Shown piece by piece: positions 9,691-54,724 of a stretch of 64,000 nucleotides of DNA. The position numbers were made by a program, and so were the translations under genes. How positions within the stretch are numbered: the first letter of the stretch is position 1; each line of letters opens with the position of its first letter. This DNA comes from an uncultured Candidatus Saccharibacteria bacterium (GTDB lineage Bacteria; Patescibacteriota; Minisyncoccia; Phycocordibacterales; UBA9973), in NCBI GenBank assembly GCA_964646765.1, contig CAZYIA010000002.1, positions 99,467 through 163,466 of the forward strand, read 5' to 3'. Under the pieces are notes generated by a model that saw only the letters and a list, made by a program, of their open reading frames with translations, made no database searches and was not told the origin of the DNA.

Positions 9691-9748
9691 ATAAAAATAG
9701 TATACACCGCTATTGCACAGCAAGGATGGGTATAGTTTAATAACCCAT

Positions 9749-10666: not shown

Positions 10667-10705
10667 TTTTTTGCCACCGATCAAATTGTTTGGTTTAATT
10701 AGAAA

Positions 10706-13078: not shown

Positions 13079-13711
13079 ATGCAAACAGAGCTCGCCGGAA
13101 TCTTTACAGTGATTATTGTCCTGATGTCTGTGGTGGTACATGAAGTTGCCCATGGCTACGCAGCGCTCGCCTATGGTGATCGAACAGCCTTAGTAGCTGG
13201 GAGACTCACACTTAACCCTCTTAAACATTTGGATCCAATTGGTTCAGTACTGTTACCACTCGTGCTTATCCTCTCTCATGCACCATTTCCATTCGGTTGG
13301 GCTCGGCCAGTACCATATAATCCGGCGAATATTAAAGACCTCAAGTGGGGTATCTTTGCGGTTTCAGCCGCAGGGATAGGAGCCAATTTTGGTCTAGCAT
13401 TTGTTTTCTCTCTCATCCTTCGAATTGCGGTTATGGTTGGTGTTACCTCGGCTTCTTTTTTGACGATAGTTTCTTTAATTATTATTGCTAATATTTCTTT
13501 AGCAGTTTTCAATCTTTTACCAGTCCCGCCGCTCGATGGCTCTCGAATTATTTTTAGTTTACTTCCACTACGGTATCGATATCTTGAAGCTCGTTTTGAA
13601 GCTTACGCACTTCCTGCCATTCTTGTTCTCATGTTTCTTCTCTGGAAATTCGACTTCATTTCCCCAGGTATTCGTTTTTTGTATACTTTTTTTACTGGGG
13701 TTGCGATATAA
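13079..13711 (+). CDS. Site-2 protease family (peptidase M50) membrane metalloprotease
   Basis: The HExxH motif (VVHEVAHGY) sits in the first transmembrane helix, and NLLPVPPLDGSRII is the M50 LDG motif. Four to five transmembrane helices. Confidence 0.6.
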   Translation: MQTELAGIFTVIIVLMSVVVHEVAHGYAALAYGDRTALVAGRLTLNPLKHLDPIGSVLLPLVLILSHAPFPFGWARPVPYNPANIKDLKWGIFAVSAAGIGANFGLAFVFSLILRIAVMVGVTSASFLTIVSLIIIANISLAVFNLLPVPPLDGSRIIFSLLPLRYRYLEARFEAYALPAILVLMFLLWKFDFISPGIRFLYTFFTGVAI

Positions 13712-13720
13712 TCTAGCTAC

Positions 13721-15646
13721 ATGCGATTGGAACGTCTTTTAGTCCCTCTTGTTTCTGCTGTTCTTATTTTTTCGACAGCGAGTTTTGCGCTTGCATCTTC
13801 AACTATAGGAACCATTGATCCAACTAACTCAGGTGCCAAATATGCATCCGTTGATGATGGTAGTCGATTAAACATTGGTAGTTTCACAACTCAATCTGCA
13901 TATAATGCGACAGTAACAAGTACCCAAATTCGCGGCTACGGTTGGGGTGATGATATGGGTTGGGTGGTTTGGAACTGTGCTGATACTACGAGTGGTTGTT
14001 CAAACACAAATGGTAATTTTAAGGTTTCAGTTAATGGAACTACCGGTGTTCTTTCAGGCTATGGTTGGGGAGAAATTGCTGGCTGGATTAATTTCGGTCC
14101 ATTTTCTAACGCGGCTATTTCGCGAGTAAAGATTGATCCGACCACCGGAGAATTTGGTGGAACCTTAGGCAATGCAGGTTACGCTTGGAGTGAAAATTTT
14201 GGCTTCATAAAATTTGATTGCAGTAATTCACCAACATGCGTCAAAACTGATTGGCGTGGAGCAAGTAGCACTACAGGTACTTCTGGTTCAGGCTCAGGTG
14301 CTGTTGGTTTGATTGGTCCTACTGGCCCAACATCAACAGTTGGTACAACGACTGGAACTACTACGGGCACAACTACAGGAACTGCTGGTACTACAACCAC
14401 TACAACTACTGGAACAACGACGGGAGGTAATGGTACTCAAACTTCTACAACTACAACAACGACAGGAACCACAACTGGTAGTGGTGATACGACAACCAGT
14501 ACAACCGGTGGCGATACTACAACCGGAACAACTGGAAGTGATGCCGGTACATCAACTGGATCAACAACTGGCACAGGAACTGGTTCTGGAACTGGTAGTG
14601 GTGGAAGTGGTACAGGATTCAGCCCAAATCCTCCAGGAGGTATCGTAGATGTTATTAAGAATCTTTTCGATACCATTAATGGTCTACAGGAGATTCCAAT
14701 TGCTAAGGAACTTGGTAAAGCTGCCGTGATTGTTGGTGCTGCCGCTGGTGTTGCCGCTACGACGGTTGCTGCACTCTTCGCTAATCCATTTGCAGTATCT
14801 GACCTCTTCTCTATCCCACTTCGTCTCTGGTCGCTACTCCTTTCTGCGTTTGGAGTTCGTCGTAAGCCATGGGGTGTTGTGTATGACTCTGTAACAAAAC
14901 AACCGCTTGATCCAGTATATGTAGTACTCAAAGACACGGCTGGTAACGATGTTGCAACCTCAATTAGTGATATCAGTGGACGTTGGGGCTTCTTAGCAAA
15001 ACCAGGTGTATATACCATTGCTGCTGGAAAAACAAATTATGTGTTCCCATCTCAAAATTTGAGTGGCCGCCTTGCGGACGAACTCTACCAAGATCTCTAC
15101 TTTGGTGAACCGATCACCATTTCACAAGAAGGTGAAGTAATTGCAAAAAATATTCCAATGGACCCAGTTGGCTTTGACTGGAATGAATTTGCCAAGAAGC
15201 AGCAGAAATTGATGAGCTTCTACACTGAACGAACAAAATGGTTTGCACGAATTACCGCAGTTGTATTCTATGCTGGTCTCCTCATTTCTCTCGCAGCATT
15301 TATTGGTACTCCAAAACCGTTGAATGGTATTATTCTTGCCCTCTATGGTTTAATTTTCCTTCTTCGCCGATTAGGTGTAAAACCAAAATCGTGGGGTGGT
15401 ATCGCCAATTCGCAAGGTTACCCAGTTCCGTTTGCCATCGTTCGAGTGTTCTCTGTTGCAACTAAGACTGAAATTACTCATAAAGTTGCTGATGCTACCG
15501 GCCGCTACTACTGTTTGATCCAGAATGGTAACTACTACGTCACTATTGATCGTAAGAATCCAGATGGTACCTATACCAGGGTTCTTGAAACTCCTCCATT
15601 TGCAGTCACAAAAGGGTTCTTGAACAAAAGCTTCACTATCCAGTAA
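13721..15646 (+). CDS. Large surface or membrane protein: signal peptide, N-terminal beta-rich domain, about 110-aa Thr/Gly-rich mucin-like linker, two transmembrane segments each followed by a carboxypeptidase-regulatory-like (prealbumin-fold) domain
   Basis: The signal peptide is MRLERLLVPLVSAVLIFSTASFALA. A low-complexity TTGTTTGTTTGTAGTTTTTTTG...GSGTGSGGSGTG region follows. Repeated modules read PWGVVYDSVTKQPLDPVYVVLKDTAGN...GRWGF and SWGGIANSQGYPVPFAIVRVF...TGRYY. Confidence 0.55.
   Translation: MRLERLLVPLVSAVLIFSTASFALASSTIGTIDPTNSGAKYASVDDGSRLNIGSFTTQSAYNATVTSTQIRGYGWGDDMGWVVWNCADTTSGCSNTNGNFKVSVNGTTGVLSGYGWGEIAGWINFGPFSNAAISRVKIDPTTGEFGGTLGNAGYAWSENFGFIKFDCSNSPTCVKTDWRGASSTTGTSGSGSGAVGLIGPTGPTSTVGTTTGTTTGTTTGTAGTTTTTTTGTTTGGNGTQTSTTTTTTGTTTGSGDTTTSTTGGDTTTGTTGSDAGTSTGSTTGTGTGSGTGSGGSGTGFSPNPPGGIVDVIKNLFDTINGLQEIPIAKELGKAAVIVGAAAGVAATTVAALFANPFAVSDLFSIPLRLWSLLLSAFGVRRKPWGVVYDSVTKQPLDPVYVVLKDTAGNDVATSISDISGRWGFLAKPGVYTIAAGKTNYVFPSQNLSGRLADELYQDLYFGEPITISQEGEVIAKNIPMDPVGFDWNEFAKKQQKLMSFYTERTKWFARITAVVFYAGLLISLAAFIGTPKPLNGIILALYGLIFLLRRLGVKPKSWGGIANSQGYPVPFAIVRVFSVATKTEITHKVADATGRYYCLIQNGNYYVTIDRKNPDGTYTRVLETPPFAVTKGFLNKSFTIQ
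14270..14625 (+). repeat. Imperfect tandem codon repeats (ACN GGN units) encoding the Thr/Gly-rich linker
   Basis: Repeated units act gga act/aca act gga are visible in the nucleotide sequence. This is a likely slippage- or recombination-prone tract. Confidence 0.5.
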
Positions 15647-16270: not shown

Positions 16271-16741
16271 ATGCGTAGAAAAGTAACCAATCGTAATATC
16301 CCAAAGCCGGATATTAAATACAGCTCAGAGCGTCTCGCTAAATTTATCAACTGCATCATGTGGGATGGTAAAAAAGAAGTCGCTCGTGGCATCGTCTATC
16401 GTGCTCTCGACATCATCAAGGAAAAGGAAAAGGTAACTGATCCACTTGAAGTATTCGAAGCAGCTCTTCGAAACACTGCTCCACTTATGGAAGTTCGCTC
16501 ACGCCGTATCGGGGGGGCTAACTACCAGGTGCCTCGTGAAGTTCGTCCAGAACGCCGTCTCGCTCTCTCTATCCGCTGGATGGTAGGTGCAGCTCGCGGT
16601 GGCAAGGGTCGCCCAATCGCTGATCGTCTTGCTGATGAACTCATCGCCGCTTCAAAAGGTGAAGGTGCAGCCGTTAAGAAAAAGGACGACACACACAAGA
16701 TGGCAGAATCAAACAAAGCATTCGCTCACTTTGCTTGGTAG
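16271..16741 (+). CDS. rpsG: 30S ribosomal protein S7
   Basis: MRRKVTNRNIPKPDIKYSSERLAKFINCIMWDGKKEVARGIVYRALD matches the S7 family. It lies immediately downstream of rpsL. Confidence 0.92.
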   Translation: MRRKVTNRNIPKPDIKYSSERLAKFINCIMWDGKKEVARGIVYRALDIIKEKEKVTDPLEVFEAALRNTAPLMEVRSRRIGGANYQVPREVRPERRLALSIRWMVGAARGGKGRPIADRLADELIAASKGEGAAVKKKDDTHKMAESNKAFAHFAW

Positions 16742-16900
16742 GTCGCAACTCCTTACAGGAGCAGTACACCTTTTGAGATATTTTTGTTCGTAAAACTCCA
16801 AAACTATCTCAAAAGGTCTTGCACTCCTCTAAGTATTCAGAGTTCACTCATCAGCGCCTCGCATCTAAAGCAATTTATATTGATTTTCCAAAATCTATTT

Positions 16901-16928
16901 CTCCACACAAAAACCGCCGTTCATGGCG
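16901..16928 (+). terminator. Rho-independent terminator after rpsL-rpsG
   Basis: The hairpin aaaaaccgccgttcatggcggttttt is followed by a T-run. Confidence 0.5.
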
Positions 16929-16950
16929 GTTTTTGCTATACTGGCAGCAT

Positions 16951-18243
16951 ATGCATCACCCTACGCGGTTGAAAGTTCTCATTGGAACTCTTGTTCTTAT
17001 TTCGATATACGCAGTATCTCTCTTTGCGCTTGCTGCCGTTACCTACGTAACTCCAGGAACTGTTCAAGATCCAGCTGGCGCACCTGGAAGCTATACCGTT
17101 GCTCCTGTTTCAATTGGGGAAACAATAGGGAACTCTCCCGTTCCGACAGGCGCTTTGTATGTAGATGGCAATGGCCTTTTGGCTACGGACGCCGGATTTA
17201 CTCATATTCCCGTACTTGTTGATCAACCAAACCAAACAGTTGCTAATCTAGCTATTTCATCAATTGCCAATACTGTTGATTCAACAACCGGGGTAACCAA
17301 TGTTGGCTTTGAGGGGGGATTAGTTATCAACGATAACTTTGATCATTCAGGAAATGGTGGAAGTTTGATTGGAACAGTAAATGGGGCTTTTCTCTCGAGT
17401 GCTGCCACAATTAATAAACTCATTGGCAACCTAAGTATTTCAGGAGGATATATTGGTGGTACAGGAACGATTACTGATGCTATTGGAGTAGCTTCGAATA
17501 TTATTAATGTTGGCAGTACAGTAACGAATGGTTACTTGTTCTACGGACAGAGTATTGGCTCAACAAACAAATATGGTGTCTATATTGATCTTGATGACAC
17601 GATAAATGTTCTCCGTGAACTTCAGCTCCGCCAAGATAGTCCGCTTAAGTGGTACGACGGCGACAGCTCAAATTACGTTGCTTTCAAGGCACCGAATGTT
17701 GTTGCTTCTGATCTTACTTGGGTGCTTCCTTCAGTTGAGGGAACCGATGGCCAAGTGCTTACTTGGCATACTGGCGGACTTTCGTGGGATACGCCGGCAG
17801 GTGGTGGCGGTGGGGGAGGAGAAACTGTAACCACTGTTAAACTAAGTCTCTCGCAATCTGATATTTTAGCTCTCGGAACAAAGGTAGAAGTTGTTCCAGC
17901 TCCTGGTCCTGGTAAAGCAATTCAAATTCTTAATATCGTAGGCACAGTAAATTTTGGAACTACGGCATATGATACTAATACCCAAATGGTTGGTTTCGAA
18001 GGAACCGATCCAAGTAATGGTATTTTTAGCTCCATAAACCACCTAAATGCTACCAGCTCAAAAACGATACTTTTTAACGCCAACGGTTTTGGTGGACCGA
18101 GTTCGTATAAAGCTGTTGTAGAGAATTCTCCATTTTATATTCAAGCAGGAAGTAGCGGTCCAGGAGGATTTACTGGAGGCAACCCAGCTAATGGAGATAG
18201 TACTATTGATTTGTATGTAACTTATACAACGATCAACCTCTAA
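16951..18243 (+). CDS. Membrane-anchored surface protein, family member A (N-terminal transmembrane anchor, conserved TYVTPGTVQDPAGAPGSYTV box, beta-rich repeats, poly-Gly hinge, C-terminal beta domain)
   Basis: The start was moved to MHHPTRLKVLIGTLVLISIYAVSLFALAA. It is paralogous to 18256..19464 and to the N-terminus of 52088..54724. Shared boxes are NVLRELQLRQDSPLKWYDGDSSNYVAFKAP and LTWHTGGLSWDTPAGGGGGGG. Confidence 0.55.
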   Translation: MHHPTRLKVLIGTLVLISIYAVSLFALAAVTYVTPGTVQDPAGAPGSYTVAPVSIGETIGNSPVPTGALYVDGNGLLATDAGFTHIPVLVDQPNQTVANLAISSIANTVDSTTGVTNVGFEGGLVINDNFDHSGNGGSLIGTVNGAFLSSAATINKLIGNLSISGGYIGGTGTITDAIGVASNIINVGSTVTNGYLFYGQSIGSTNKYGVYIDLDDTINVLRELQLRQDSPLKWYDGDSSNYVAFKAPNVVASDLTWVLPSVEGTDGQVLTWHTGGLSWDTPAGGGGGGGETVTTVKLSLSQSDILALGTKVEVVPAPGPGKAIQILNIVGTVNFGTTAYDTNTQMVGFEGTDPSNGIFSSINHLNATSSKTILFNANGFGGPSSYKAVVENSPFYIQAGSSGPGGFTGGNPANGDSTIDLYVTYTTINL

Positions 18244-18255
18244 CACTTTCATCGT

Positions 18256-19464
18256 ATGTCTATGTCTCTTCAACGAAAAAAAATTCTCCTCGGTTCATTT
18301 ATTTTTATTTCACTCTATGGGGCCGCGCTTACGTATGCAGCGATGACTTATGTTGCTCCAAGTACCGTCCAAGATCCTGTCGGTGCCCCAGGTACTTACA
18401 CAGTTGGTTTTGCTACAGCACCAAATGAGGTTCTCTATACCAATAGTTCAAACCAGCTTGCCTCTGATGCGGGGTTTACTCGTGTTCCAACAATGGTTGA
18501 TTTACCCGATCAATCAATTGGAAATAAAACTCTTACCACAATGCAGAACACGGCTAATACGAATGGTATTGCAAACGTTGGGTCAAGCTCGGTTCTCTTA
18601 ATAAATGACAGTTTTGATCACCTAAATGCGTATACTATTGGGTTAGCAGGTGAAGCAGTGCAAATGAGTAGTGGTACCATCGATAAGCTTGTTGGTCTTG
18701 GCGGCGTATCGATAAACAATGGTTCTGGTGTTGTAACACAGGCAATGGGAACGGCATCGGTGGTGGTTAACTCTGGTAGCGGTTCTATCACCAATGGCTA
18801 CGGATTTTTCTCGAACAAAATTGATGGTACAAATAAGTACGGTATTTATGTCGATGTTGACGACACTACGAATGTTCTTCGTGAACTTCAGTTGCACGAC
18901 GAAAGCCCGCTCAAATTATTTGATAAAGACAGTTCGAACTTTATTGCACTCAAGTCTCCATCAGTTCTCTTAACTGATACGACATATACACTTCCGCTTG
19001 CTGATGGTTCTTCTGGTCAATTTTTGAAAACGGACGGGGCAGGTAACCTTTCGTGGGATACGCCGGCAGGTGGTGGAGGGAGTAGCGACATTCAAACGGC
19101 AACCATTCACGTTAGTTCCGCAGAAATATTAGCACTCAACACTTCTCCTGTAGAACTTTTACCTGCTCCGGGAGCAGGTAAGGCTATTGATTTAGTATCA
19201 CTTGTCGTTAGACAGAACTTCGTTACAACTCAATATGATGGAGGATTCATGGCTATCTTCCCGAGTCTTTACTTTGGTGTAGGTAATATCAGCGACAACA
19301 TTAGTGGTACTCAGCTTGATTTTACTTCTTCGCGTATTACTAAAATGACTATGAACGGCCTCATGGTAGAGAATGAGCCTCTGTATCTTGGAACAAGTGC
19401 CAATCCAACCAATGGTGACGGCACCCTCGATTTCTATATAACCTATCGAATTATCGATTTGTAA
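18256..19464 (+). CDS. Membrane-anchored surface protein, family member B (paralog of 16951..18243)
   Basis: MSLQRKKILLGSFIFISLYGAALTYAAMTYVAPSTVQDPVGAPGTYTV, NVLRELQLHDESPLKLFDKDSSNFIALKSP and GNLSWDTPAGGGGS match the upstream gene in both order and spacing. The C-terminus ends TLDFYITYRIIDL, against IDLYVTYTTINL in the paralog. Confidence 0.55.
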   Translation: MSMSLQRKKILLGSFIFISLYGAALTYAAMTYVAPSTVQDPVGAPGTYTVGFATAPNEVLYTNSSNQLASDAGFTRVPTMVDLPDQSIGNKTLTTMQNTANTNGIANVGSSSVLLINDSFDHLNAYTIGLAGEAVQMSSGTIDKLVGLGGVSINNGSGVVTQAMGTASVVVNSGSGSITNGYGFFSNKIDGTNKYGIYVDVDDTTNVLRELQLHDESPLKLFDKDSSNFIALKSPSVLLTDTTYTLPLADGSSGQFLKTDGAGNLSWDTPAGGGGSSDIQTATIHVSSAEILALNTSPVELLPAPGAGKAIDLVSLVVRQNFVTTQYDGGFMAIFPSLYFGVGNISDNISGTQLDFTSSRITKMTMNGLMVENEPLYLGTSANPTNGDGTLDFYITYRIIDL

Positions 19465-19558: not shown

Positions 19559-21709
19559 ATGGAACGAGATTATCCTCTAGAGAAAGTACGTAACTTCGGT
19601 ATCGTTGCTCACATCGATGCCGGTAAAACCACGACATCAGAACGTGTGCTCTTTTACACTGGTGTATCACACAAAATTGGTGAAGTGCACGAAGGTGAGG
19701 CAACCATGGACTGGATGGAACAGGAGCGTGAACGCGGTATCACCATTACTGCTGCGGCAACTACCTGTTTCTGGACTCCAACCTACGCAAACGGCGACAA
19801 AAATAAAAAGCACCGCTTTAACTTGATCGACACCCCTGGACACATCGACTTCACCGTAGAAGTGAAGCGTTCCCTCCGTGTGCTCGACGGCGCAGTTGTG
19901 GTGTTCGATGGTGTTGCTGGTGTAGAACCACAGTCTGAAACAAACTGGCGCTACGCTGACGAAGCAAAGGTTCCTCGTATTTGTTTCATCAACAAACTCG
20001 ACCGTACTGGCGCATCATTCGAGAAGTCATACGCTTCTATTCTTGATCGCTTGAACAAAAAAGCTGTTCGTATGCAGATTCCAATTGGTCTTGAAGATAA
20101 GCACGAAGGTGTTATTGATCTTCTTACTATGGAAGCAGTAACGTTCTCGGGTGAAAAAGGAGAAAAAATTTCTCGCGGACCAATTCCTGAAGAGTACAAA
20201 GCTGAAGCAGAAAAGTTTCACAACGAACTCATCGAAGCTATCGTTTCTCATGACGACGAACAGATGACCGCATACCTCGACGGAAAAGTTCCATCAATCG
20301 ATGAACTCAAGAAAACACTCCGTAAGGCAGTTATCGCAAACGAAATTTTCCCAGTGTACGCAGGTTCTGCGCTTAAGAACAAAGGCGTGCAACTCGTCCT
20401 CGACGGTGTTGTAGATTATCTTCCAGCTCCAACTGATATTCCACCAATCAAAGGTATTAACCCTGACACTGAAGAACCAGCAGAACGCAAAGCTTCTGAT
20501 GCCGAACCATTTTCAGCACTTGCTTTCAAGGTTGCTTCTGATCCATTCGTTGGCCAGCTCGTGTTCTTCCGTGTGTACTCTGGACAACTTGCCGCTGGTT
20601 CATACGTGTACAACCCACGCACTCGAAACAAAGAGCGCATCGGCCGTATTCTTCGTATGCACGCAAACGAGCGTGAAGAAGTGAAGAAAGTATTTGCTGG
20701 TGAAATTGCCGCTGCCGTTGGTTTGAAAGACACCATTACTTCTGACACTATCTGTGACGAACAGAATCCAATTGAACTTGATCGCATTGTCTTCCCAGAA
20801 CCAGTTATCAGCTTACGTATCGAACCGAAGACAAAGGCTGACCAGGAAAAAATGGGTATGGCACTTTCTCGTCTTGCTCAAGAAGACCCAACCTTCCGTG
20901 TCACCTCAGATTCTGAAACTGGCGAAACAATCATCGCAGGTATGGGAGAACTTCACCTCGACATTATTGTTGATCGCTTGAAGCGCGAATTCTCTGTTGA
21001 AGCAAACGTTGGTAAGCCACAGGTTGCTTACCGCGAAACTATTACCGGTACTGCTGAAGTGGAAGGTAAGTACATCAAGCAAACTGGTGGTCGTGGTAAC
21101 TATGGTCACGTTCGCATCAAGATTAAGCCAATGGATATGACTCTTACCAAAGAGGATATTGCTGACCTTCCGAAGAACGTGAAGCGCGAAGACCACTTCG
21201 AATTCATTAACACAATTAAAGGTGGTGCAATTCCTCAAGAATATATTCCAGCTTGTGAAAAAGGTTTCCGTGAAGGTCTTGAACGCGGTGTTGTTGCTGG
21301 ATTCAAAATGGTGGACGTTTCTGTTGACCTTTGGGATGGTAGTTACCACGATGTGGACTCAAACGAAATGGCCTTCAAGATTGCTGCTTCAATGGCAATT
21401 CAGGATGCATGTAAACAAGCTCGTCCAGTTATCCTTGAACCGATGATGAAAGTAGAAGTGGTGACTCCAGATAAATTCATGGGTGATGTTACTGGTTCTC
21501 TTTCAGCGAAGCGTGGTCTTATCGAAGGTATGGAAGCTCGTGGTATGAACCAAGCAGTAAAAGCAGTTGTGCCACTTTCTGAAATGTTCGGTTACATGAC
21601 TAACCTCCGCTCAATGACCGAAGGCCGCGCTGGATTTACTATGGAATTCCTTCGCTACGATGTGGTTCCGCAGAACGTCGCCGACGAAATCGTAAAATCC
21701 CGCAAATAA
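19559..21709 (+). CDS. fusA: Elongation factor G
   Basis: The G1–G5 GTPase motifs ([20 protein letters not shown]; DTPGHIDF; NKLD) and all EF-G domains II–V are present, including [13 protein letters not shown]. Confidence 0.95.
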
Positions 21710-21943: not shown

Positions 21944-24574
21944 ATGAGGAAATTTCTTCTCTGCATGCTGGTAGCTCTAGGTAGTTACCACATGTTTGCT
22001 CAAACCACTTTCTCCACGTCCTTCAACAGCGGGGTTCAATTTATCTGTTCACAGCAGGTAAACTTTGAAATCGCTGAAGCAGGCATTACGGCTTCCGTTT
22101 CGGAAGACTTACAACCAAACACGGTGTATTTTCACCTGAATCCTTCCGTAACAGGAATAATTACCAATGTCACTATATGGCAAGGTGGGGTTCAGTATGG
22201 TCCTACGGTTAATCCGTTTGGGGCGATGCAGGTAGCTATTCAGGGTTCGCCCGGCATACCAGCAGGAACTTCGGAAATTCTTACGTTCAATGCAGATGTT
22301 ATTGGCAATTCTGGCGACATATTCAGCCTAACAATTGACTCAATTCGTTGCATTGGTCTAACTACCGGAACGGCCGTTACTCTTCCTGCAAATTTTTCCG
22401 GAAAAACATTCATTATTCAAAGTTGCCCGGCGCTTATCGCGGATTTCAGTTTGAGTAAACATGAGTTTTGCTACGGTGAAATTATAGCAATAACAAATCA
22501 TTCTATTGCTCCAGGTAATGCCGAATATCAATGGGAATTTGGTTGGAACTCACAGCCGCCTAATATTATTGGTGATACTTCAGTTTTCCCGAATACATTT
22601 ACCGTTCAGTTCTATCAAACAGGAACATACAATGTTGATCTTTGGGTAACCAATCATACTACCGGCCAATCAAGCCACCACGCCGAAACTGTTCAAGTAC
22701 GCCCGAATCCATCTACAACATCAATTACCGCAAGCGGATTACTGGGCTGCAATGGAGCGACCGAATTAACACTTACAGCAAATACCCTTGGCGGTATTAA
22801 CACATACACCTGGATGCAAGGAACATGGGGTGGTCCATATGACACACTTGCTGTGAATGGAGATTCCACTCTTATGGTTACCACGCCGGGAGAGTATTTC
22901 GTTGTTCCTACAAATGTGTATGGTTGCTCACAACCGTATCCGCAACCCTACAATGTAAGTTATGTTCAAAATCCAAGTGTGGAATTGTACGTAACGAATT
23001 TGCCGGGAACATGGATTCAAATACCACAGGTACTACATGATACTGCTTATGCGTGCGAATTTAGTCTTTCCCAACTACAACTTGGAGTAAATGCTTGGGT
23101 TCCTATGACCGGCTCCCAAGGACTATTCTATGAGTGGAACGATAGTAGCCATGCCGCTCAGTTTCATCCACTTTCCGGTTCCGGAAATTCGGAGTGGTAT
23201 TATGTTTCAGTTACCAATACAAATGGTTGCACTACAGTGGATTCTCTGTACTTAGATGTTGTTCATCCAACAGCGCCCACTATTACTGCATTAGGCCCAA
23301 CTACTTTCTGCGAAGGTGACCATGTATCTTTATTAGCCAGTGGTTCTCCAGGATTACAATACTACTGGAACTACGGTGCTCCTGGAGATAGCGTGTCGCT
23401 GTTCTGGAATCCCGGACCTATCGTTGCGTTTACCATTGATGCCTATGGTTGCAGAGCCCAATCAGATACCGTGTTTATTACCATATTGCCGGTGCCACAA
23501 AAACCAACAATATTAGTGAACGGTTGCAATCTTGTTTCTGATGCTGTTTCAAATAACACCTGGTTTTATGGAACACAGCAACTCTCTTACACTGGAAGTG
23601 TTATTACTCCTGATTCATCAGGAATTTTTATCACCACAGTTACAGGAGTGAATGGTTGCTCAGCAACTTCTGACCCTGTTGCGTTCCAAGTACCACCACT
23701 TCCACAAATTACAGTTAGCGATAACAATTTTTGTGAAGGTGGTTCAAGTACGCTCGCTGTTGGACCTGGTACGGATTTTGTATGGTCTAACGGCCAAACA
23801 GGAAGCCCAATTACTGTTGAAACTTCAGGCACCTACAGCGCCACCGTTACAAATGGTACCTGCGTACGGGTTGCAACACCTGTTACTATCACGGTTTTTC
23901 CGAAACCGAACACTACTATTGATACCGTTGGCACAATGCAATTTTGCCAAGGTGGCTCAGTTACCTTGCTACTTCAGGAAAGTGGTTCTGTGTACGATTG
24001 GAACACAAATGAGGTTACACAAGAAATTAATGTAACCCAATCCGGTTCCTTCCGTGCTCACATCACTAATATATATGGCTGCGAAGCTTATACTGATGTA
24101 GTAACAGTGTTTGTACATCCATTACCTGATGTTGACCCGATTTTAGTAACTAACTGTTTACTGGCCGCGCCTTACGGAGCAGCGACCTATCAGTGGTTAC
24201 TGTTCGGAGATACTATTAGCGGAGCAACAAACCGCTTTTGTACTGCAGATACCAACGGCATCTACGAATGTGTTCTGACCAGCCAATTTGGTTGTGAGGC
24301 GTATTCGTTGCCAACTGTTGTAACTTGCGGAGCTACTACGGGTATTACAGAAATTACCGAAGATGCGCTTGCGTTATTCCCGAACCCCACAACTGGTTTG
24401 GTTACCGTAAAGCCTGATTTGACGCTTGAAGAAGAAGTTTTCATTTACTCCATTACCGGAGATATTGTTCGCAAGGAACCGAAAGGGACCAAAGCATTCG
24501 ATATTTCTAACCTGGCAGACGGTATGTATACCGTTCGCATAGGGAATTCGATTACAAAACTGGTGAAGCAGTAA
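21944..24574 (+). CDS. Large secreted multi-domain protein with a Bacteroidota-type signal peptide, tandem Cys-bracketed Ig-like repeats and a type IX secretion (Por) C-terminal sorting domain
   Basis: The signal peptide is MRKFLLCMLVALGSYHMFAQ. Repeats of the form FC.GG(S).L.....Y.W..G.T...I.V...G.Y...VT...GC occur at least five times. The C-terminal ~70 aa (LFPNPTTGLVTVKPDLTLEEEVFIYSITGDIVRKEPKGTKAFDISNLADGMYTVRIGNSITKLVKQ) fit the T9SS CTD pattern (PNP..., Y...G..V, D.S.L..G.Y.V.I). Confidence 0.7.
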   Translation: MRKFLLCMLVALGSYHMFAQTTFSTSFNSGVQFICSQQVNFEIAEAGITASVSEDLQPNTVYFHLNPSVTGIITNVTIWQGGVQYGPTVNPFGAMQVAIQGSPGIPAGTSEILTFNADVIGNSGDIFSLTIDSIRCIGLTTGTAVTLPANFSGKTFIIQSCPALIADFSLSKHEFCYGEIIAITNHSIAPGNAEYQWEFGWNSQPPNIIGDTSVFPNTFTVQFYQTGTYNVDLWVTNHTTGQSSHHAETVQVRPNPSTTSITASGLLGCNGATELTLTANTLGGINTYTWMQGTWGGPYDTLAVNGDSTLMVTTPGEYFVVPTNVYGCSQPYPQPYNVSYVQNPSVELYVTNLPGTWIQIPQVLHDTAYACEFSLSQLQLGVNAWVPMTGSQGLFYEWNDSSHAAQFHPLSGSGNSEWYYVSVTNTNGCTTVDSLYLDVVHPTAPTITALGPTTFCEGDHVSLLASGSPGLQYYWNYGAPGDSVSLFWNPGPIVAFTIDAYGCRAQSDTVFITILPVPQKPTILVNGCNLVSDAVSNNTWFYGTQQLSYTGSVITPDSSGIFITTVTGVNGCSATSDPVAFQVPPLPQITVSDNNFCEGGSSTLAVGPGTDFVWSNGQTGSPITVETSGTYSATVTNGTCVRVATPVTITVFPKPNTTIDTVGTMQFCQGGSVTLLLQESGSVYDWNTNEVTQEINVTQSGSFRAHITNIYGCEAYTDVVTVFVHPLPDVDPILVTNCLLAAPYGAATYQWLLFGDTISGATNRFCTADTNGIYECVLTSQFGCEAYSLPTVVTCGATTGITEITEDALALFPNPTTGLVTVKPDLTLEEEVFIYSITGDIVRKEPKGTKAFDISNLADGMYTVRIGNSITKLVKQ

Positions 24575-45397: not shown

Positions 45398-48136
45398 ATG
45401 GAAAGTTTCCCGCAAGCGTCCAAATTTAAAACGGCTGAAGAAGAGCTCGCTTTTTTGCGTGCTCATATTGCTGAACGCGAACAAAAATCTGCTGAGATGG
45501 GCACAGGCGGTGGCAGTGAAAAAGCAGCGGAAGCCACACTTGAAGCATACAAGCGTGCTGACGCTGCAGAAGTGCTTCATGAAGCTGCGAAATTGCCGGA
45601 GCATCAGGTTGAACAATTAGTTCTTAATTTAAAACCTGAAACACACGATCGCCAGATGGAAGAGCTTCTCGGGATTCTTCTTGAGAATGGTATTAAGAAC
45701 GCCCTTGATGTAGTTGAGGCTATGCAGAACCCGCACTTAACCGATGATTTTCATCGTTTTCTAGTGCAGTACCTTGTAAGTACCAACGGTATTCCAGGAC
45801 TAAAAGAATCGCATCCACTTTGGAAAGGAGTGAATATGAAGCTTTTTGAAATTACCCTTCCTGAACAAGGAAAAGATGAAGCAAAGGGCTACAAAGAATT
45901 TATTGCCGCTATGGAGCAATTTTACGCTGGCATGCTCTCCGCTGGCGGAACTGACAATCCAAACCGTAAATACTACACCCTTGAAATCGCGGTTAATAAT
46001 AAGTCACCGCAAATCATGTTCTATGCTGCGGTGCCGAATGAAAAAGTAGATCTCTTTGAAAAACAGGTTCTTGGTTTCTACGAAGATGCAAAAGTAAAAG
46101 AAATTTCTGACGACTACAATATTTTTACTGAAGGTGGTGAAGCCGCTGGTTCATATGCCAAGCTTGGGGAAGTAGAAGTATTTCCACTGAAAATGCATGA
46201 TGAACTCGAGCACGACCCGATGAAGGCTATCATCAATGCCTTTTCAAAATTGAAGGATGAAGGTGAAGGTGCTGCTATTCAGTTTATGGTAGTTCCTGCG
46301 GGGGAACGACTAGTAAAGCAATTTTCTAATGTCCTCTGGCGAGTGAAAGAGGAAAAACTTCGAGCTCGAGAAGCTCTTAAGCTTTCAAACTCAATTGGCC
46401 GGGAAGTATTTCACCTGGCCAAACAGTTTGTAAAACCAACTTCCAAAGAGCGTCTTGAACAAAAAGGCCGCGCAAATGAAAAAGATATTGAAAATATCAC
46501 TAATAAGTTAAAAAGCACTGTTGTTGATGTTGCTGTTCGAGTAGTTGCTTCAGCTGCTACTCGTGAACGAGCGAAAGACATTTTGCGTGAAATTGAATCA
46601 GCATTCTATCAATTCTCAAATCCAACTGCGAACCATATTGAATGGGAACGTGTTGAAGGGCGTCGGGCAAGCGAACTCTTCCAAGAATTTTCATATCGTA
46701 TGTTCAATGAGGAAGAGCGCATGTCGCTTAATCTTCGCGAACTTGCCTCACTTTTTCATTTCCCAATTGGTATTTCTTCTTCACCTGAACTCAAGCAAGC
46801 TAAGGCTGCAACTGCTCCAGTGCCACTGGAAATGAAGGCTGACGCCGGCGGTATTTTCTTAGGTACCAATGAGCATCGTGGTGGATCGAAGAAAGTATTT
46901 ATGGGCAAAGAAGATCGCCGTCGTCACTTCTATGCTATTGGTCAAACCGGTACTGGTAAGACAACCATTTTGAAGCACATGATCATTCAAGATATTCAGA
47001 ATGGTGACGGAGTGTGTTTCATCGATCCGCATGGTTCTGATCTCCAGGACATTATTGCCAATATTCCAAAAGAGCGTATCGACGATGTTATTTACTTTGA
47101 TCCGGCGTACATTGCTCGGCCAATGGGGCTAAACATGTTGGAATACGATCCACGATACCCAGAACAAAAAACCTTCGTGGTGAACGAGCTTTTGGCTATT
47201 TTTAATAAGCTCTTCGATATGAAAACGGCCGGTGGCCCAGCGTTTGAACAGTACTTCCGTAACTCGTCGCTTTTGGTTATGGAAGATCCAGCATCTGGTT
47301 CAACGCTCCTGGAAATCGGTCGCGTGCTCGCGGATAAAGAATTCCGCGATCTCAAACTTTCTCGTTGTAAAAACCCAATCATCAAACAATTTTGGGAAAA
47401 TGCTGAAAAAACATCGGGCGAACAATCATTGGCAAACTTCGTACCATACGTTACCAACAAGTTCGATGTGTTCGTTTCAAACGACATCATGCGTCCGGTT
47501 ATTGCTCAGGAAAAGTCCGTATTCAATTTCCGTGAGATTATGGATAATCGCAAGATCCTTCTCGTGAATCTTTCGAAAGGCCGTTTGGGTGATATTAACT
47601 CAAACCTTATTGGTCTCATTTTGGTTGGAAAGCTTACGATGGCGGCGCTTTCTCGTGTCGATATTTTAGGCAAACAAGAAGTGCACGATTTTTACCTCTA
47701 CATCGACGAATTTCAGAACGTCACAACCGACTCCATCGCAACAATCCTTTCCGAAGCCCGCAAATACCGCCTGTGTTTGAATATCGCCCATCAATATATC
47801 GAACAGCTTGATGAGAAGATCAAAAATGCCGTCTTTGGAAACGTGGGATCGATGGCCATCCACCGTGTTTCGGTGGAGAATGCGGAGGTGTTCGCTAAAC
47901 AGCTTGAACCGACATTCACTGCAGAAGATATCATTAAACTCGAGAACCTTAATTGTTACATAAAGATGCTGGTGAACGGCATGCCGGTAAAACCATTCAA
48001 CTCGAAAACACCGTTTCCGCCGAAGGGTAATCCAGAGCTTGCTGAAAAGATTAAAGAGCTTTCGTACCTCAAATTCGGGCGAGATCGGGAAGAAGTGGAA
48101 AGTGAAATCATGGCCCGCTACGTTCAGCAGTTCTAA
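45398..48136 (+). CDS. Large soluble P-loop ATPase of the VirD4/TraG/TrwB coupling-protein superfamily (ATPase domain in the C-terminal half; about 450-aa N-terminal domain of unknown function, no transmembrane segments)
   Basis: Walker A is HFYAIGQTGTGKTT, followed by CFIDPHGSD. Walker B is LYIDEFQN. The region SEARKYRLCLNIAHQYIEQL resembles the TraG-D_C motif. Confidence 0.6.
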   Translation: MESFPQASKFKTAEEELAFLRAHIAEREQKSAEMGTGGGSEKAAEATLEAYKRADAAEVLHEAAKLPEHQVEQLVLNLKPETHDRQMEELLGILLENGIKNALDVVEAMQNPHLTDDFHRFLVQYLVSTNGIPGLKESHPLWKGVNMKLFEITLPEQGKDEAKGYKEFIAAMEQFYAGMLSAGGTDNPNRKYYTLEIAVNNKSPQIMFYAAVPNEKVDLFEKQVLGFYEDAKVKEISDDYNIFTEGGEAAGSYAKLGEVEVFPLKMHDELEHDPMKAIINAFSKLKDEGEGAAIQFMVVPAGERLVKQFSNVLWRVKEEKLRAREALKLSNSIGREVFHLAKQFVKPTSKERLEQKGRANEKDIENITNKLKSTVVDVAVRVVASAATRERAKDILREIESAFYQFSNPTANHIEWERVEGRRASELFQEFSYRMFNEEERMSLNLRELASLFHFPIGISSSPELKQAKAATAPVPLEMKADAGGIFLGTNEHRGGSKKVFMGKEDRRRHFYAIGQTGTGKTTILKHMIIQDIQNGDGVCFIDPHGSDLQDIIANIPKERIDDVIYFDPAYIARPMGLNMLEYDPRYPEQKTFVVNELLAIFNKLFDMKTAGGPAFEQYFRNSSLLVMEDPASGSTLLEIGRVLADKEFRDLKLSRCKNPIIKQFWENAEKTSGEQSLANFVPYVTNKFDVFVSNDIMRPVIAQEKSVFNFREIMDNRKILLVNLSKGRLGDINSNLIGLILVGKLTMAALSRVDILGKQEVHDFYLYIDEFQNVTTDSIATILSEARKYRLCLNIAHQYIEQLDEKIKNAVFGNVGSMAIHRVSVENAEVFAKQLEPTFTAEDIIKLENLNCYIKMLVNGMPVKPFNSKTPFPPKGNPELAEKIKELSYLKFGRDREEVESEIMARYVQQF

Positions 48137-51351: not shown

Positions 51352-51617
51352 TTTTGTCTAATTTGCTACCATGCATTTTTTATTGCAAATCTATTCTTTC
51401 CGCTTGCAGATTATGTATCGAAGCATACAATAAATACAGGATTATTGAGGAGTATCACTTAGAACATAAAGTATCCGGGATCCTTGATTATTTTGTGCCG
51501 TGGCACAGAATCTCTGGAACCCACTTGGCTTCACGCTAAGGTGATATCTGCCCGATAGTCCTAACAAGCAACTCTCCGTTTGGAGGGTTTTTTGTTTGTT
51601 CAGGCTTTAGGTATACT

Positions 51618-52087: not shown

Positions 52088-54724
52088 ATGTTTGACCAAG
52101 TATGGTTATTTCTAAAGCTCCGTATTTTTTCCGAGAAGGTTCTCATCGGAGCTTTTGTATTTATTTCTCTCTATACAGGCGCCTTATACGCATTTGCGGT
52201 TACGTATGTAAACCCGGGAGATGTTCTTGATCCTTCAGGATTGCCTGGGAGTTACACAGTTCGAATATTTCCCAATCAAGCCGGCCATGCTGGAGAGTAC
52301 CTCACTACCGATGGCTCAGGAAATCTAAGCTGGGATTCAGTCTCTGGTTCCGGTAGTCCTGCGGGGAGTGATGGAGAAGTGCAGTTTAATAATGGAGGCT
52401 CTTTTGGAGCTTCGTCTCATTTTTTCTGGGATAACAGCACTAATCGTTTGGGAATAAAGACAAATACTCCGGAAGCGAGTCTGCATCTGCTAGCTTCGCA
52501 AAATATTATTCCAGGAACCCCCGGCACTATCGGTTCAACTTCCTATACTCCCACTGGTCCAGGAGAGCTTGATGACGCGACATTTGGCGGAGATTACTCT
52601 GGAGACAGCGATTGTACAATTGCTGCAGGCATCGCAACGACAGCCCCAGGAAATGGCCATACCAATGATGAATTTATCTGGGGGTATGTAAGCGGTTCTT
52701 GCAGTGGGGGGTCAGGCACTCCGACTGAAATCACCCCAGGAGCTCCTCAGGCTCTTGAGAATGGCATTACGATTACTTTTGCATCAGGAACCGGTCATAC
52801 ACCGTTAGGTGAAGATTTTAGTTCAATTTGGACAGCGGCGGTTACCGCAGGTACTCCAGATACTACGAGCGCTGGAGATGATCCGTTTTTGATCACGAAT
52901 AGTGATGATGCCACTGTATTTAAGGTGGCAAACGACGGCAGAATTTCGGTAGGAGGTAGCATCGGTTCGTCTACCGTATTAATTCACGCTCTTGAAGGCT
53001 ACCGGGCGCTGACGATTCGTAACTTTGACGACAGCAGCCTTCTTTTTTCCATTGATGATTTAGGGGATGCCGATTTGTTTGGTGATTTAAGCGTTGGAGG
53101 TAATTCCTTGGCTGTAAACGGAGTTGATTATACGTGGCCTAGTTCCCAAGCTGGTGGTTCCGGGTATGTTCTTACAAACGATGGTTCGGGTGGGTTATCT
53201 TGGACAGTGCCAGATGGTGGAGGTATTACTGTTGACGCAACAAGTTATAATATCTTTTCCGATAATATAAATGCTGGTACTTCACTTACTAGCGGTACAA
53301 CAAATACTTTTTTTGGTCGGCATGCAGGATCTATTAATACCGAGGGTTCAAGTAATATTTTCATTGGACCATATTCTGGATCCTCAAATACGACAGGCAA
53401 CAACAATGTGTTTTTAGGTTCAAATGCTGGTTTTACTAGCATGATGGGAGACGATAATATTTTTATCGGGACTAATGCTGGGTATCAGGCAAATGCCGCT
53501 CAGTATAATGTTTTCTTAGGTGCAGGTGCGGGCTACTCAAATCTTTCAGGAAATTTAAATGTTGCTATTGGGTATAATGCAGGATCTGTTGCTTCTAATT
53601 ATCAAAATACCTTTATTGGCGCTTATGCGGACGCCACAATTAATACAGTCACTGAATCTATAGCACTTGGCTCTTATTCTAAAGTTAGCAATTCAAATAC
53701 ATTTGTCGCAGGTTCACAAAACGCTCCAATAACAGATGTATATTTTGGTGGAGGAGAGCATCTCGATTGGATGTACGCACCATTCGGTTATACAATTCAC
53801 GGCACCGATGCTAATGGTAATAATTTAAAAGGCGGAGACATTACTCTTATGTCAGGAGCGGGAAGCGGAAATGCTGATGGAGGAGATATTCGCATCGGGG
53901 TCGCTCCGGGCGGTTCTTGCGGCACTCCATCATCTGGCAGTACAAACGGCACGCTGTGTCGTGGGATTTTCGTTTCAGGCAATTACGGAGAAGTAAGTTT
54001 CGGATCATATACCCAATCTCCGGGAACGTTTTACACATTCCCATATAATGACGGCTCGAGCGGTGATGTTCTCGTAACCGACGGTGCCGGTGTTATAACT
54101 TGGGAAGATCCAAGCCTGCTTCCATCTGATATCTCTCTTAAAACAAACATAAACCCGATTTCCTATGGACTCGAAACTCTAGAGAATCTTCGCCCCGTTT
54201 CTTATACCTTGATTGCCTCAGGACGTCCGCAGGTTGGTTTTATCGCCCAGGAGGTTGAAACAGTTGTGCCTGAATTGGTCGGGGTAATCTCGGGAGATAA
54301 AAAAGGAATTCAATACGGCCAGCTCTCAGCGGTGATTGTAAAAGCGATTCAGGAGCTCGACCTTAAGGTACAAAACCTTGAATTGCTTACCGGAGAGGCA
54401 ACTTCAATTGCCGGTCAGTTTACAGAAACGATTCTCCGTGTAAAAAGCATCGTCTTTGGATCGTCTGAAGACCCAACAGGATTTACCATGTATGATACCG
54501 TCACTAAAGAACCGTATTGCGTAACACTTACTAGCGGAGATTTCGTTAAAACCCCGGGTGTTTGCGGTGAAGACAGTAATTTAGGATCTTCTGGAAGTGG
54601 AGACGGCGATGATATTCAAACAGAGGAAACCGTTACTCCGGATGAGCAAGAAGAAGGTGGAAGCGGAGAAGAAATTACTACGGAAAATCCTTCTCCTCAA
54701 GCGGAGCCTGCTCCTATAGAGTAA
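52088..54724 (+). CDS. Tail-fiber-like surface protein: N-terminal transmembrane anchor and family box shared with 16951 and 18256, Gly/Ser-rich hinge, beta-helix-like N.F.G..AG repeats, C-terminal phage intramolecular-chaperone (peptidase S74-like) domain, acidic tail
   Basis: The N-terminus is KVLIGAFVFISLYTGALYAFAVTYVNPGDVLDPSGLPGSYTV...GSGNLSWD. Repeats read NIFIGPYSGSSNTTGNNNVFLGSNAGFTS / NIFIGTNAGYQANAAQYNVFLGAGAGYS. The C-terminal chaperone region is SDISLKTNINPISYGLETLENLRPVSYTL...QVGFIAQEVETVVPELV. Confidence 0.6.
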   Translation: MFDQVWLFLKLRIFSEKVLIGAFVFISLYTGALYAFAVTYVNPGDVLDPSGLPGSYTVRIFPNQAGHAGEYLTTDGSGNLSWDSVSGSGSPAGSDGEVQFNNGGSFGASSHFFWDNSTNRLGIKTNTPEASLHLLASQNIIPGTPGTIGSTSYTPTGPGELDDATFGGDYSGDSDCTIAAGIATTAPGNGHTNDEFIWGYVSGSCSGGSGTPTEITPGAPQALENGITITFASGTGHTPLGEDFSSIWTAAVTAGTPDTTSAGDDPFLITNSDDATVFKVANDGRISVGGSIGSSTVLIHALEGYRALTIRNFDDSSLLFSIDDLGDADLFGDLSVGGNSLAVNGVDYTWPSSQAGGSGYVLTNDGSGGLSWTVPDGGGITVDATSYNIFSDNINAGTSLTSGTTNTFFGRHAGSINTEGSSNIFIGPYSGSSNTTGNNNVFLGSNAGFTSMMGDDNIFIGTNAGYQANAAQYNVFLGAGAGYSNLSGNLNVAIGYNAGSVASNYQNTFIGAYADATINTVTESIALGSYSKVSNSNTFVAGSQNAPITDVYFGGGEHLDWMYAPFGYTIHGTDANGNNLKGGDITLMSGAGSGNADGGDIRIGVAPGGSCGTPSSGSTNGTLCRGIFVSGNYGEVSFGSYTQSPGTFYTFPYNDGSSGDVLVTDGAGVITWEDPSLLPSDISLKTNINPISYGLETLENLRPVSYTLIASGRPQVGFIAQEVETVVPELVGVISGDKKGIQYGQLSAVIVKAIQELDLKVQNLELLTGEATSIAGQFTETILRVKSIVFGSSEDPTGFTMYDTVTKEPYCVTLTSGDFVKTPGVCGEDSNLGSSGSGDGDDIQTEETVTPDEQEEGGSGEEITTENPSPQAEPAPIE

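Follow-up and report, generated by a model that had tools for sequence, protein, structure and literature searches.

A predicted exported S74 fibre protein from a Candidate Phyla Radiation genome and its relatives in cellular bacteria

Peptidase_S74 domains are already known from phage fibres, from a non-viral use in the eukaryotic membrane-bound transcription factor MyRF, and from bacterial proteins that databases name “tail fiber domain-containing”. In the phage endosialidase (K1F/endoNF), the T5 L-shaped fibre pb1 and MyRF, the C-terminal helices of the domain trimerise, the folding of the upstream beta-stalk is templated, and the domain then excises itself before a Ser (PMC8326128). The spacing S-x4-K occurs in endoNF (S911/K916) and in MyRF (S587/K592), where the bond P586-S587 is cut (PMC8326128). 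Here we analysed a 64-kb stretch of contig CAZYIA010000002.1 (referred to below as the window) and focused on one gene at 52088-54724 of its forward strand, for which a first-pass annotation had given exactly these coordinates and whose product has 878 aa. The organism is a bacterium of the Candidate Phyla Radiation (CPR), given that its EF-G is 84-86% identical to proteins named “Patescibacteria group”, Ca. Pacebacteria, Ca. Nomurabacteria and Minisyncoccia. On balance, and with moderate confidence, we read the gene product as a trimeric fibre that is exported by Sec, chaperones its own folding and stands on the surface of a CPR/Patescibacteria cell. It represents one of many exported S74 fibres rather than a unique domestication, because the same architecture is widespread in CPR and in other cellular bacteria. 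What is newly defined here is a CPR-specific S74 architecture with a conserved N-terminal box (N-box), an all-beta module and a Cys-containing extension. The gene is divided as follows.

52088..54724, + strand: whole gene, predicted exported S74 fibre protein, a single open reading frame (ORF) of 878 aa in the ORF list
52088..52198, + strand: predicted Sec signal peptide or signal-anchor, aa 1-37, with n-region K10/R12/K17, h-region aa 18-36 and a site A-F-A before V
52199..52261, + strand: N-box VTYVNPGDVLDPSGLPGSYTV, aa 38-58, common to two paralogs
52262..52474, + strand: junction motif 1 (FPNQAGHAGEYLTTDGSGNLSW ... GEVQFNNGGSFG...WD...LGI), aa 59-129, also in viral fibres and CPR relatives
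52475..52987, + strand: CPR-specific all-beta module with Cys176/Cys205, aa 130-300 (confident core aa ~140-260)
53120..53224, + strand: junction motif 2 (YTWPSSQAGGSGYVLTNDGSGGLSW), aa 345-379
53303..53707, + strand: eight 17-residue repeats, aa 406-540, predicted beta-roll or beta-helix shaft
53765..54124, + strand: pre-S74 stalk with Cys611/Cys624 and junction motif 3 (YTFPYNDGSSGDVLVTDGAGVITWEDPSLLP), aa 560-679, ending at the predicted cleavage site between P679 and S680
54125..54388, + strand: Peptidase_S74 intramolecular chaperone/auto-processing (ICA) domain, aa 680-767, by Pfam, PHROGs, PDB profile and fold
54125-54127 and 54140-54142, + strand: codons of Ser680 and Lys685, the predicted catalytic dyad
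54389..54577, + strand: post-S74 extension, aa 768-830, in which the S74 helix runs on to about aa 790 and a 3-strand beta unit follows
54578..54724, + strand: low-complexity tail, acidic and Ser/Gly/Pro-rich by translation, aa 831-878 plus stop, predicted disordered

The S74 domain was recognised by several routes. The Pfam profile PF13884 (Peptidase_S74, “chaperone of endosialidase”) matches aa 680-731 at an E-value of 1.1e-14; the 54.9 bits of this match exceed the gathering score of 22, and it spans positions 1-57 of the 58 in the profile. In PHROGs, 19 families match the protein, and 13 tail-fibre, baseplate or receptor-binding families do so at aa ~679-765. A single-sequence phmmer search against PDB gave no match for the full protein and only an E-value of 0.89 for its C-terminal 229 aa, so that a profile search was needed. 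The profile was built from an alignment of 23 S74-bearing homologues (A4), in which S, D, K, I, G, A, Q, P, V and E are at least 90% conserved, and it matched 8jov (4e-20), 6f45 (1e-15), MyRF 7dc3 (2e-10), 3gud (6e-8) and the T5 pb1 assembly 8hqz (1e-4). Its S680 and K685 columns align to SDER.K of the solved structures, and the crystallised chain of 3gud starts at the homologous Ser (SDERHK). The dyad suggested for checking in the first-pass annotation is intact, with spacing S-x4-K and with P679 directly before the Ser at the predicted scissile bond. A word-indexed search yielded 755 homologues, of which 120 were retrieved for comparison, and S-x4-K is found in 80 of these. As to position, the same annotation had assigned S74 to the last ~110 aa; the domain is real, but it lies at aa 680-767 and is followed by 111 aa that comprise a helix, a two-Cys beta unit and an acidic tail.

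We also built an AlphaFold2 (AF2) monomer model of aa 620-850. Its predicted local distance difference test score (pLDDT) is 86-95 over aa 680-770, with a helix at aa 743-790, and the modelled fold shows the small beta “donut” and long C-terminal helix expected of an ICA domain. Foldseek placed the MyRF ICA (7dc3) at the top of the PDB matches, with an E-value of 4.8e-5, a probability of 1.0 and a template modelling score of 0.63 (target-normalised), and the endoNF intramolecular chaperone 3gw6 was also matched (E 0.1). As far as the sequence can tell, the prerequisites for autoproteolytic S74 release are present.

The two best described systems each resemble the protein in part. Endosialidase and T5 pb1 (MEROPS S74, PF13884) likewise carry S-x4-K at the start of a domain that lies C-terminal to a beta fibre, and the predicted shared role is trimer nucleation followed by self-excision. 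However, they are virion proteins assembled in the cytoplasm, with phage structural modules, no signal peptide and a terminal S74, whereas our protein has a signal-like N-terminus, a housekeeping context and the 111-aa extension, and its S74 region is only 27-34% identical to phage proteins. MyRF, a non-viral use of S74 and the best structural match, shares the P-S junction, the Ser/Lys spacing and the presence of sequence beyond S74. Its cleavage frees an N-terminal transcription factor from a membrane anchor of the endoplasmic reticulum that is C-terminal to the ICA, whereas the present protein possesses neither a transmembrane segment after S74 nor a DNA-binding domain. In fact, a Pfam scan of the protein gave nothing besides S74 at E<=1, and an NCBIfam scan gave no match. 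A role in anti-phage defence was considered and set aside, as PADLOC returned no match.

Upstream of S74 lies a shaft made of phage-type fibre building blocks, as had been claimed in the first pass, since its repeats and junction motifs are common to phage fibres. The beta-helix-like repeats proposed there comprise eight 17-residue units with the consensus N-x-F-h-G-x-x-A-G-x-x-N-T-x-G-x-x, with an autocorrelation of 0.28 at shift 17 and 0.30 at shift 34, compared with about 0.03-0.15 at the other tested shifts. PHROG tail-spike and virion-structural families match aa ~395-540, and the repeat block is matched by all 120 retrieved homologues. The junction motif occurs three times (aa 66-82, 345-379 and 647-676). 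Its first unit, at aa ~57-125 (...GEYLTTDGSGNLSW...GEVQFNNGGSFG...WD), is also found inside viral fibre proteins, and in giant fibre proteins of IMG/VR the motif is internal, at positions 540-1660. In Saccharibacteria and Paceibacteria relatives, junction motif 1 follows immediately after the N-box. The pre-S74 stalk is 46% identical to aa 549-653 of a CPR relative (P0003).

This composition raises the possibility that the gene encodes an ordinary phage, prophage or extracellular contractile injection system (eCIS)/tailocin fibre that lies in the contig by chance, given that S74, 17-aa repeats and junction motifs are all typical of phage and eCIS fibres. We regard this as very improbable. The upstream neighbours are S5, L15, SecY, adenylate kinase, an amino-acid kinase, Map, an ATPase resembling type IV secretion system (T4SS) coupling proteins, Maf, CYTH, NDK, HD, CYTH and DUF2238 proteins, and downstream stand a beta-CASP RNase (RNase J-like), a SLOG protein, a P-type ATPase and phosphoglucomutase. 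The ~12 kb on either side contain no gene for a capsid, portal, terminase, tail, sheath or baseplate protein, no eCIS/tailocin cluster (sheath, tube, baseplate) was seen among the annotated ORFs of the window, and the GC content of the gene (0.44) matches the rest of the window. Because the annotated neighbours are housekeeping genes and structural phage genes are absent, we conclude that the gene is cellular and not part of a prophage, the case in which the first-pass annotation would have had to call it simply a phage fibre. Moreover, a signal-like N-terminus does not suit assembly of virions or particles in the cytoplasm, aa 1-391 have no match in PHROGs at E<=0.01, IMG/VR contains neither the N-box nor the beta module, and a Nomurabacteria homologue (L003) is syntenic with cellular genes, adjoining the genes of an S2P-like protease and a 635-aa membrane protein that in the window precede rpsL. 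The identical protein is found on 4 contigs, one of them a 281-kb NCBI contig, and the neighbours were unchanged in the contigs read. A promoter and terminator scan said little about the transcription unit: it detected 3 promoter-like sites against 7 expected, and one terminator-like hairpin at 51570-51589, upstream of the DUF2238 gene that precedes our gene.

The S2P-like metalloprotease gene and that of the membrane protein (~640 aa) form a conserved pair, at 13079-15646 (+) in the window and at 8197-10739 in the Nomurabacteria contig, where the S74 fibre gene (1393 aa) is just upstream of it. Besides a signal peptide and C-terminal membrane segments, the ~640-aa protein has a long low-complexity stretch rich in Thr and Gly; no Pfam match was obtained for the 641-aa protein.

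Annotated phage genomes match no more than 18% of the fibre protein (aa 394-551 or 628-801) at 27-46% identity, and the closest relatives at every module are cellular proteins of CPR or Bacteroidota (37-58% identity). The earlier idea of a domesticated phage receptor-binding protein is thus unsupported as regards direction and recency.

The part of the body most peculiar to CPR is the all-beta module. The protein contains its motif LH..A.Q..IPG...ITPG..Q....GITITFASGTGHT...GDDPFLIT, and in an alignment of the region (A2) it is 42-53% identical to six other CPR sequences, with 42 invariant columns. When 185,579 species genomes were scanned with A2, the full module was found only in CPR metagenome-assembled genomes (MAGs), namely of Nomurabacteria, Patescibacteria group, Saccharibacteria, WWE3 and Paceibacteria. 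Against IMG/VR, only the short motif VLTNDG.G.L.W was matched and the full beta module was not found; junction motif 2 is the sole part of A2 that matches viral contigs. We treat the module as a surface-exposed insertion domain, and a distant phage origin of it may be considered.

At the N-terminus, the first-pass annotation had seen a transmembrane anchor, which is doubtful. The segment at aa ~17-37 is the only hydrophobic one in the protein, has an n-h-c layout and ends in A-F-A before V, like a signal-peptidase site; in CPR relatives it ends in V-F-A, A-F-A, S-F-A or V-S-A immediately before the box. Given this layout and the [V/A]-F-A site conserved across the family, and applying the -3/-1 rule for signal peptidase I, a cleavable signal peptide seems at least as likely as a membrane anchor for aa 1-37. 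The protein further contains three Cys pairs (C176/C205, C611/C624 and C811/C826), which is consistent with an extracytoplasmic protein.

The N-box is homologous to a CPR-wide box Y.PG..LDP.C.PG...C.V, also written PY.PG.TLDPSC.PGS.NC.V, in which both Cys are replaced here, by S/G and Y. A Cys-less N-box is found elsewhere only in the two paralogs of the window, in a tandem pair (P0035/P0044) located downstream of rplJ-rplL, and in a 1.2-kb metagenome contig (L063). An alignment of the N-terminus (A1) gave 99 pattern matches in species-representative genomes, of which 0 were confirmed, so the genome of the window is probably absent from these representatives and the Cys-less variant appears to be rare. 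No IMG/VR viral contig has the signal plus N-box. The claim that the N-terminus is not phage-like accordingly holds for aa 1-56 and ~130-330, but fails for aa ~57-125, where the junction motif of viral fibres lies. Another claim of the first pass, that the box is shared with two paralogs of the str operon, agrees with our data: VTYVNPGDVLDPSGLPGSYTV and the hydrophobic segment recur in two genes between rpsG (16271-16741) and fusA (19559-21709).

16951..18243, + strand: paralog 1, 430 aa from Met45 of ORF 16819-18243, with the same signal and N-box, a different body and no S74
18256..19464, + strand: paralog 2, 402 aa, with the same signal and N-box

Paralog 1 has no match in Pfam, PHROG or PADLOC. 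Paralog 2 is 43% identical to it over the full length, and has in common with the S74 protein only aa 9-84 and the motif DGSSG..L.TDGAG.L.W. An exhaustive search with paralog 2 returned 6,285 cluster representatives, almost all through the junction unit at its aa ~200-290, which is present in up to 24 copies per protein among these matches; full-length relatives are very few. As an observation apart, these two genes (16819-19464) are non-ribosomal secreted-protein genes that break an otherwise canonical rpsL-rpsG-fusA-tuf str operon, and their C-terminal ~120-aa domain has very few relatives in 1.84 billion representatives (P0270, P0287, P0396).

Beyond S74, Cys811 and Cys826 lie inside the three-stranded beta unit (TGFTMYDTVTKEPYCVTLTSGDFVKTPGVCG), for which the AF2 pLDDT is ~80 (aa 799-823). 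This extension, here called variant B, was otherwise found only in P0060, in the fragment P0259 and in the protein's own cluster at >=90% identity, and a word-indexed search with it found a single 120-aa fragment. Most CPR relatives possess a variant A two-Cys extension, W[FL].D..NGI...LC....C[IV]T..L..LL, and they end in analogous Pro/Thr/Asp/Glu-rich tails.

We then compared the layout among relatives. Of the 120 retrieved homologues, 81 share S74 and three the N-box. The region aa 120-330 is common to nine, all of them CPR proteins, among which are P0002, P0003 and P0007 (“Patescibacteria group bacterium”) and P0012 (“Ca. Pacebacteria”). The succession of signal, N-box, junction motif, beta module, shaft, S74, Cys extension and low-complexity tail is seen in MAGs of Saccharibacteria, Paceibacteria and Nomurabacteria; the junction motif after the N-box reads FPDQTGN.GKYLTTDG..SW and the shafts are variable. 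The N-terminus of our protein aligns to those of P0003, P0012, P0026, P0113, L005 and L012, with a [V/A]-F-A signal, the N-box and FP.Q.G..G.YLTTDG..SW. We refer to these proteins as the CPR-type exported S74 fibre family, which is defined in the present analysis and is not a curated family. The CPR-type fibres (P0002, P0003, P0007, P0012; L003, L005, L006, L008, L012) share the whole layout with our protein at 37-58% identity per module; our protein is shorter (878 aa versus 1,000-1,900 aa) and, unlike most of them, has lost the N-box Cys and carries the rare variant B extension. Among the 114 homologues with intact starts, a signal-like N-terminus is present in 90 and is combined with S74 in 63. 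In most homologues the Ser stands 92-140 aa before the C-terminus, and in the CPR type 167-260 aa.

Some relatives occur in groups, often as tandem copies and again in cellular surroundings. P0003, on a CPR-like JGI contig of 501 kb, stands beside two further S74 genes, glycosyltransferases and UvrB. The three S74 genes of this contig (L002, 10001-20091), of 1384, 748 and 264 aa, lie within 10 kb and adjoin a PG_binding_1 protein and glycosyltransferases, which suggests a local expansion of the family.

Outside CPR, the nearest class is that of exported Bacteroidota “tail fiber domain-containing proteins” (an annotation class only), which have NxFxGxxAGxxNTxG repeats and S74 and are 28-47% identical to our protein. 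Like it, they have a signal-like N-terminus and are chromosomal, on Mb-scale contigs. However, they are without the CPR N-box, the beta module and the two-Cys extension, and as a rule they either stop ~92-140 aa beyond the Ser or bear Por_Secre_tail, which is used for sorting in type IX secretion (T9SS). As a conceptual analogue, YadA-type trimeric autotransporter adhesins are also exported trimeric fibres with a C-terminal trimerisation module and Gly/Asn-rich beta-roll repeats, and JGI labels two homologues “trimeric autotransporter adhesin”. The YadA type retains a membrane anchor at its C-terminus, in place of which our protein has a predicted self-excising S74, a helix, a beta unit and an acidic tail; moreover, no YadA anchor, head or stalk was matched in it by Pfam. 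CPR bacteria are generally reported to be monoderm and, on that assumption, would have no outer membrane for a beta-barrel anchor.

The breadth of the family bears on another explanation, that the protein is a structural envelope component (a fuzzy coat, spacer or S-layer-associated fibril, possibly a phage decoy) with no role in host recognition. The family is indeed widespread and multi-copy in CPR genomes, the paralogs in the str operon and the relatives near rplJ-rplL would favour high constitutive expression, and Pfam recognises no ligand-binding domain. We nevertheless hold this to be quite unlikely, since the relatives are highly divergent and module-shuffled (37-47% identity, variable shaft length, two extension variants), and such divergence is more typical of diversifying interaction pressure than of a core envelope scaffold. 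Nor did PADLOC give a match.

For the surface fibre that we favour, we propose the following course of events. First, the N-terminal signal (aa 1-37) would direct the unfolded chain through SecYEG; SecY is encoded in the same window. Second, the S74 domains of three chains would associate outside the membrane via their long C-terminal helices and nucleate the folding of the upstream beta-structured shaft, as in endosialidase, T5 pb1 and MyRF. There are no ATP-dependent chaperones outside the membrane, and this makes S74-driven extracellular folding attractive. Third, after trimer formation, Ser680 activated by Lys685 would cut the Pro679-Ser680 bond, and the 199-residue C-terminal piece (S74, two-Cys unit and acidic tail) would be discarded. 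What remains, about aa 38-679, would be the mature fibre, in which C176-C205 and C611-C624 would be disulfide-bonded. It may be retained by its N-terminal end, either through an uncleaved signal-anchor or, more likely, through docking of the N-box on a common envelope partner. Docking is suggested by the fact that the N-box is the only region common to three paralogs with different bodies, and phage fibres with a common N-terminal attachment module and variable distal parts are mirrored by these paralogs. Finally, binding to a ligand on another surface, plausibly that of a host bacterium, would fall to the exposed shaft together with the beta module and the newly formed C-terminal tip. A role as a host-attachment adhesin is plausible.

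Several points weigh against this reading. Export, cleavage, trimerisation, surface location and binding are all predicted from sequence and models. The models are of monomers only and the pre-S74 stalk has a low pLDDT in them, which would be expected of an intertwined trimer segment. No LPXTG motif, C-terminal transmembrane segment or recognised wall-binding domain is present in the protein, and the N-box partner is hypothetical, so that with the signal cleaved and S74 excised nothing demonstrated holds the fibre on the cell. In addition, type IV pili and further adhesins are held responsible for attachment in the literature on cultivated Saccharibacteria, where an S74 fibre family goes unmentioned; a transposon sequencing study of Southlakia names type IV pili, T4SS and other adhesins, and the family is not named there (PMC10633639). 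Our literature search returned no paper that links S74 with Patescibacteria or Saccharibacteria, and no functional study of exported bacterial S74 fibres was found in the searchable literature.

Since retention after signal cleavage is not demonstrated, a further explanation has to be weighed: a soluble secreted trimer with a cleaved signal, whose C-terminal extension and low-complexity tail hold the nascent trimer at the wall and whose S74 self-cleavage acts as a release switch, as in MyRF. The fibre freed into the medium would be lectin-, enzyme- or bacteriocin-like. We think this unlikely, yet it accounts for the AxA-type site after the h-region and for the lack of any recognised anchoring motif in the protein. 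The Pro/Thr-rich tails of the CPR relatives may resemble wall-spanning linkers, and, as in MyRF, many cellular homologues, such as P0042, P0113, P0046 and P0070, carry targeting or anchoring elements in the piece C-terminal to S74. On the other hand, a strictly conserved N-box in paralogs with unrelated bodies is hard to explain without a docking role, the Pfam, NCBIfam and PADLOC scans detected no catalytic or toxin domain, and the tail has no known wall-binding motif.

The modules that follow S74 in these four homologues are a Por_Secre_tail (P0042), a C-terminal transmembrane segment in a MyRF-like topology (P0046, P0070) and an Ig-like surface domain (P0113). This suggests that S74 may serve as a release switch in some bacterial proteins.

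Returning to the retained fibre, a broader and more speculative possibility, to which we give little weight, is that CPR bacteria possess a modular “cellular tail-fibre” system in which a plug of signal and N-box docks interchangeable bodies on one envelope socket, and the set of fibres determines the hosts. If so, an excisable S74 would serve some bodies as their own chaperone, and a different distal knob would be carried by others, among them the two str-operon paralogs. This would mirror phages that swap receptor-binding proteins on a common baseplate adaptor, and the location of fibre genes within the ribosomal str operon would bring high constitutive expression.

The window also contains other genes worthy of mention. 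Between fusA and tuf, at 21944-24574 (+), lies an ORF of 876 aa that has a Bacteroidota-style signal peptide and, at aa 811-874, matches Por_Secre_tail, the C-terminal sorting domain of T9SS, with 38.7 bits (cutoff 27). T9SS is reported as restricted to Bacteroidota. The protein is found again on the 281-kb NCBI contig, with a near-identical copy on a Logan contig, and is therefore not obviously a mis-assembly; it may have been transferred horizontally from a Bacteroidota neighbour or host. The ATPase between map and maf (45398-48136, +; 912 aa) has weak Pfam matches to TrwB/TraG (T4SS coupling protein) and a nearly full-length match to phrog_5156, an uncharacterised phage family (E 1.8e-84). 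At 9713-12715 (+), two secreted proteins are encoded side by side that have a coiled-coil-like start and a PG_binding_1-type segment in common, and the second adds a Kelch beta-propeller, whose blades form the only long direct DNA repeat of the window. Mutagenesis of the fibre by a diversity-generating retroelement was considered and set aside: apart from these Kelch repeats (11.4-12.1 kb), the window has no direct repeat that reaches 40 nt. In the whole window, which includes a large ribosomal-protein cluster, ARAGORN found no tRNA gene and no Rfam family reached its gathering threshold, ribosomal-protein leader motifs included.

Apart from type IV pili and a few adhesins of cultivated Saccharibacteria, little is established about how CPR bacteria recognise and hold their hosts. 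The CPR-wide family of predicted exported fibres recognised here provides concrete candidates for determinants of attachment or host range, and these could be addressed in genetically tractable Saccharibacteria, whose relatives carry homologues. More generally, cellular bacteria make wide use of the S74 chaperone, for which phage spikes and eukaryotic MyRF are the best-known cases, in proteins predicted to be exported by Sec.

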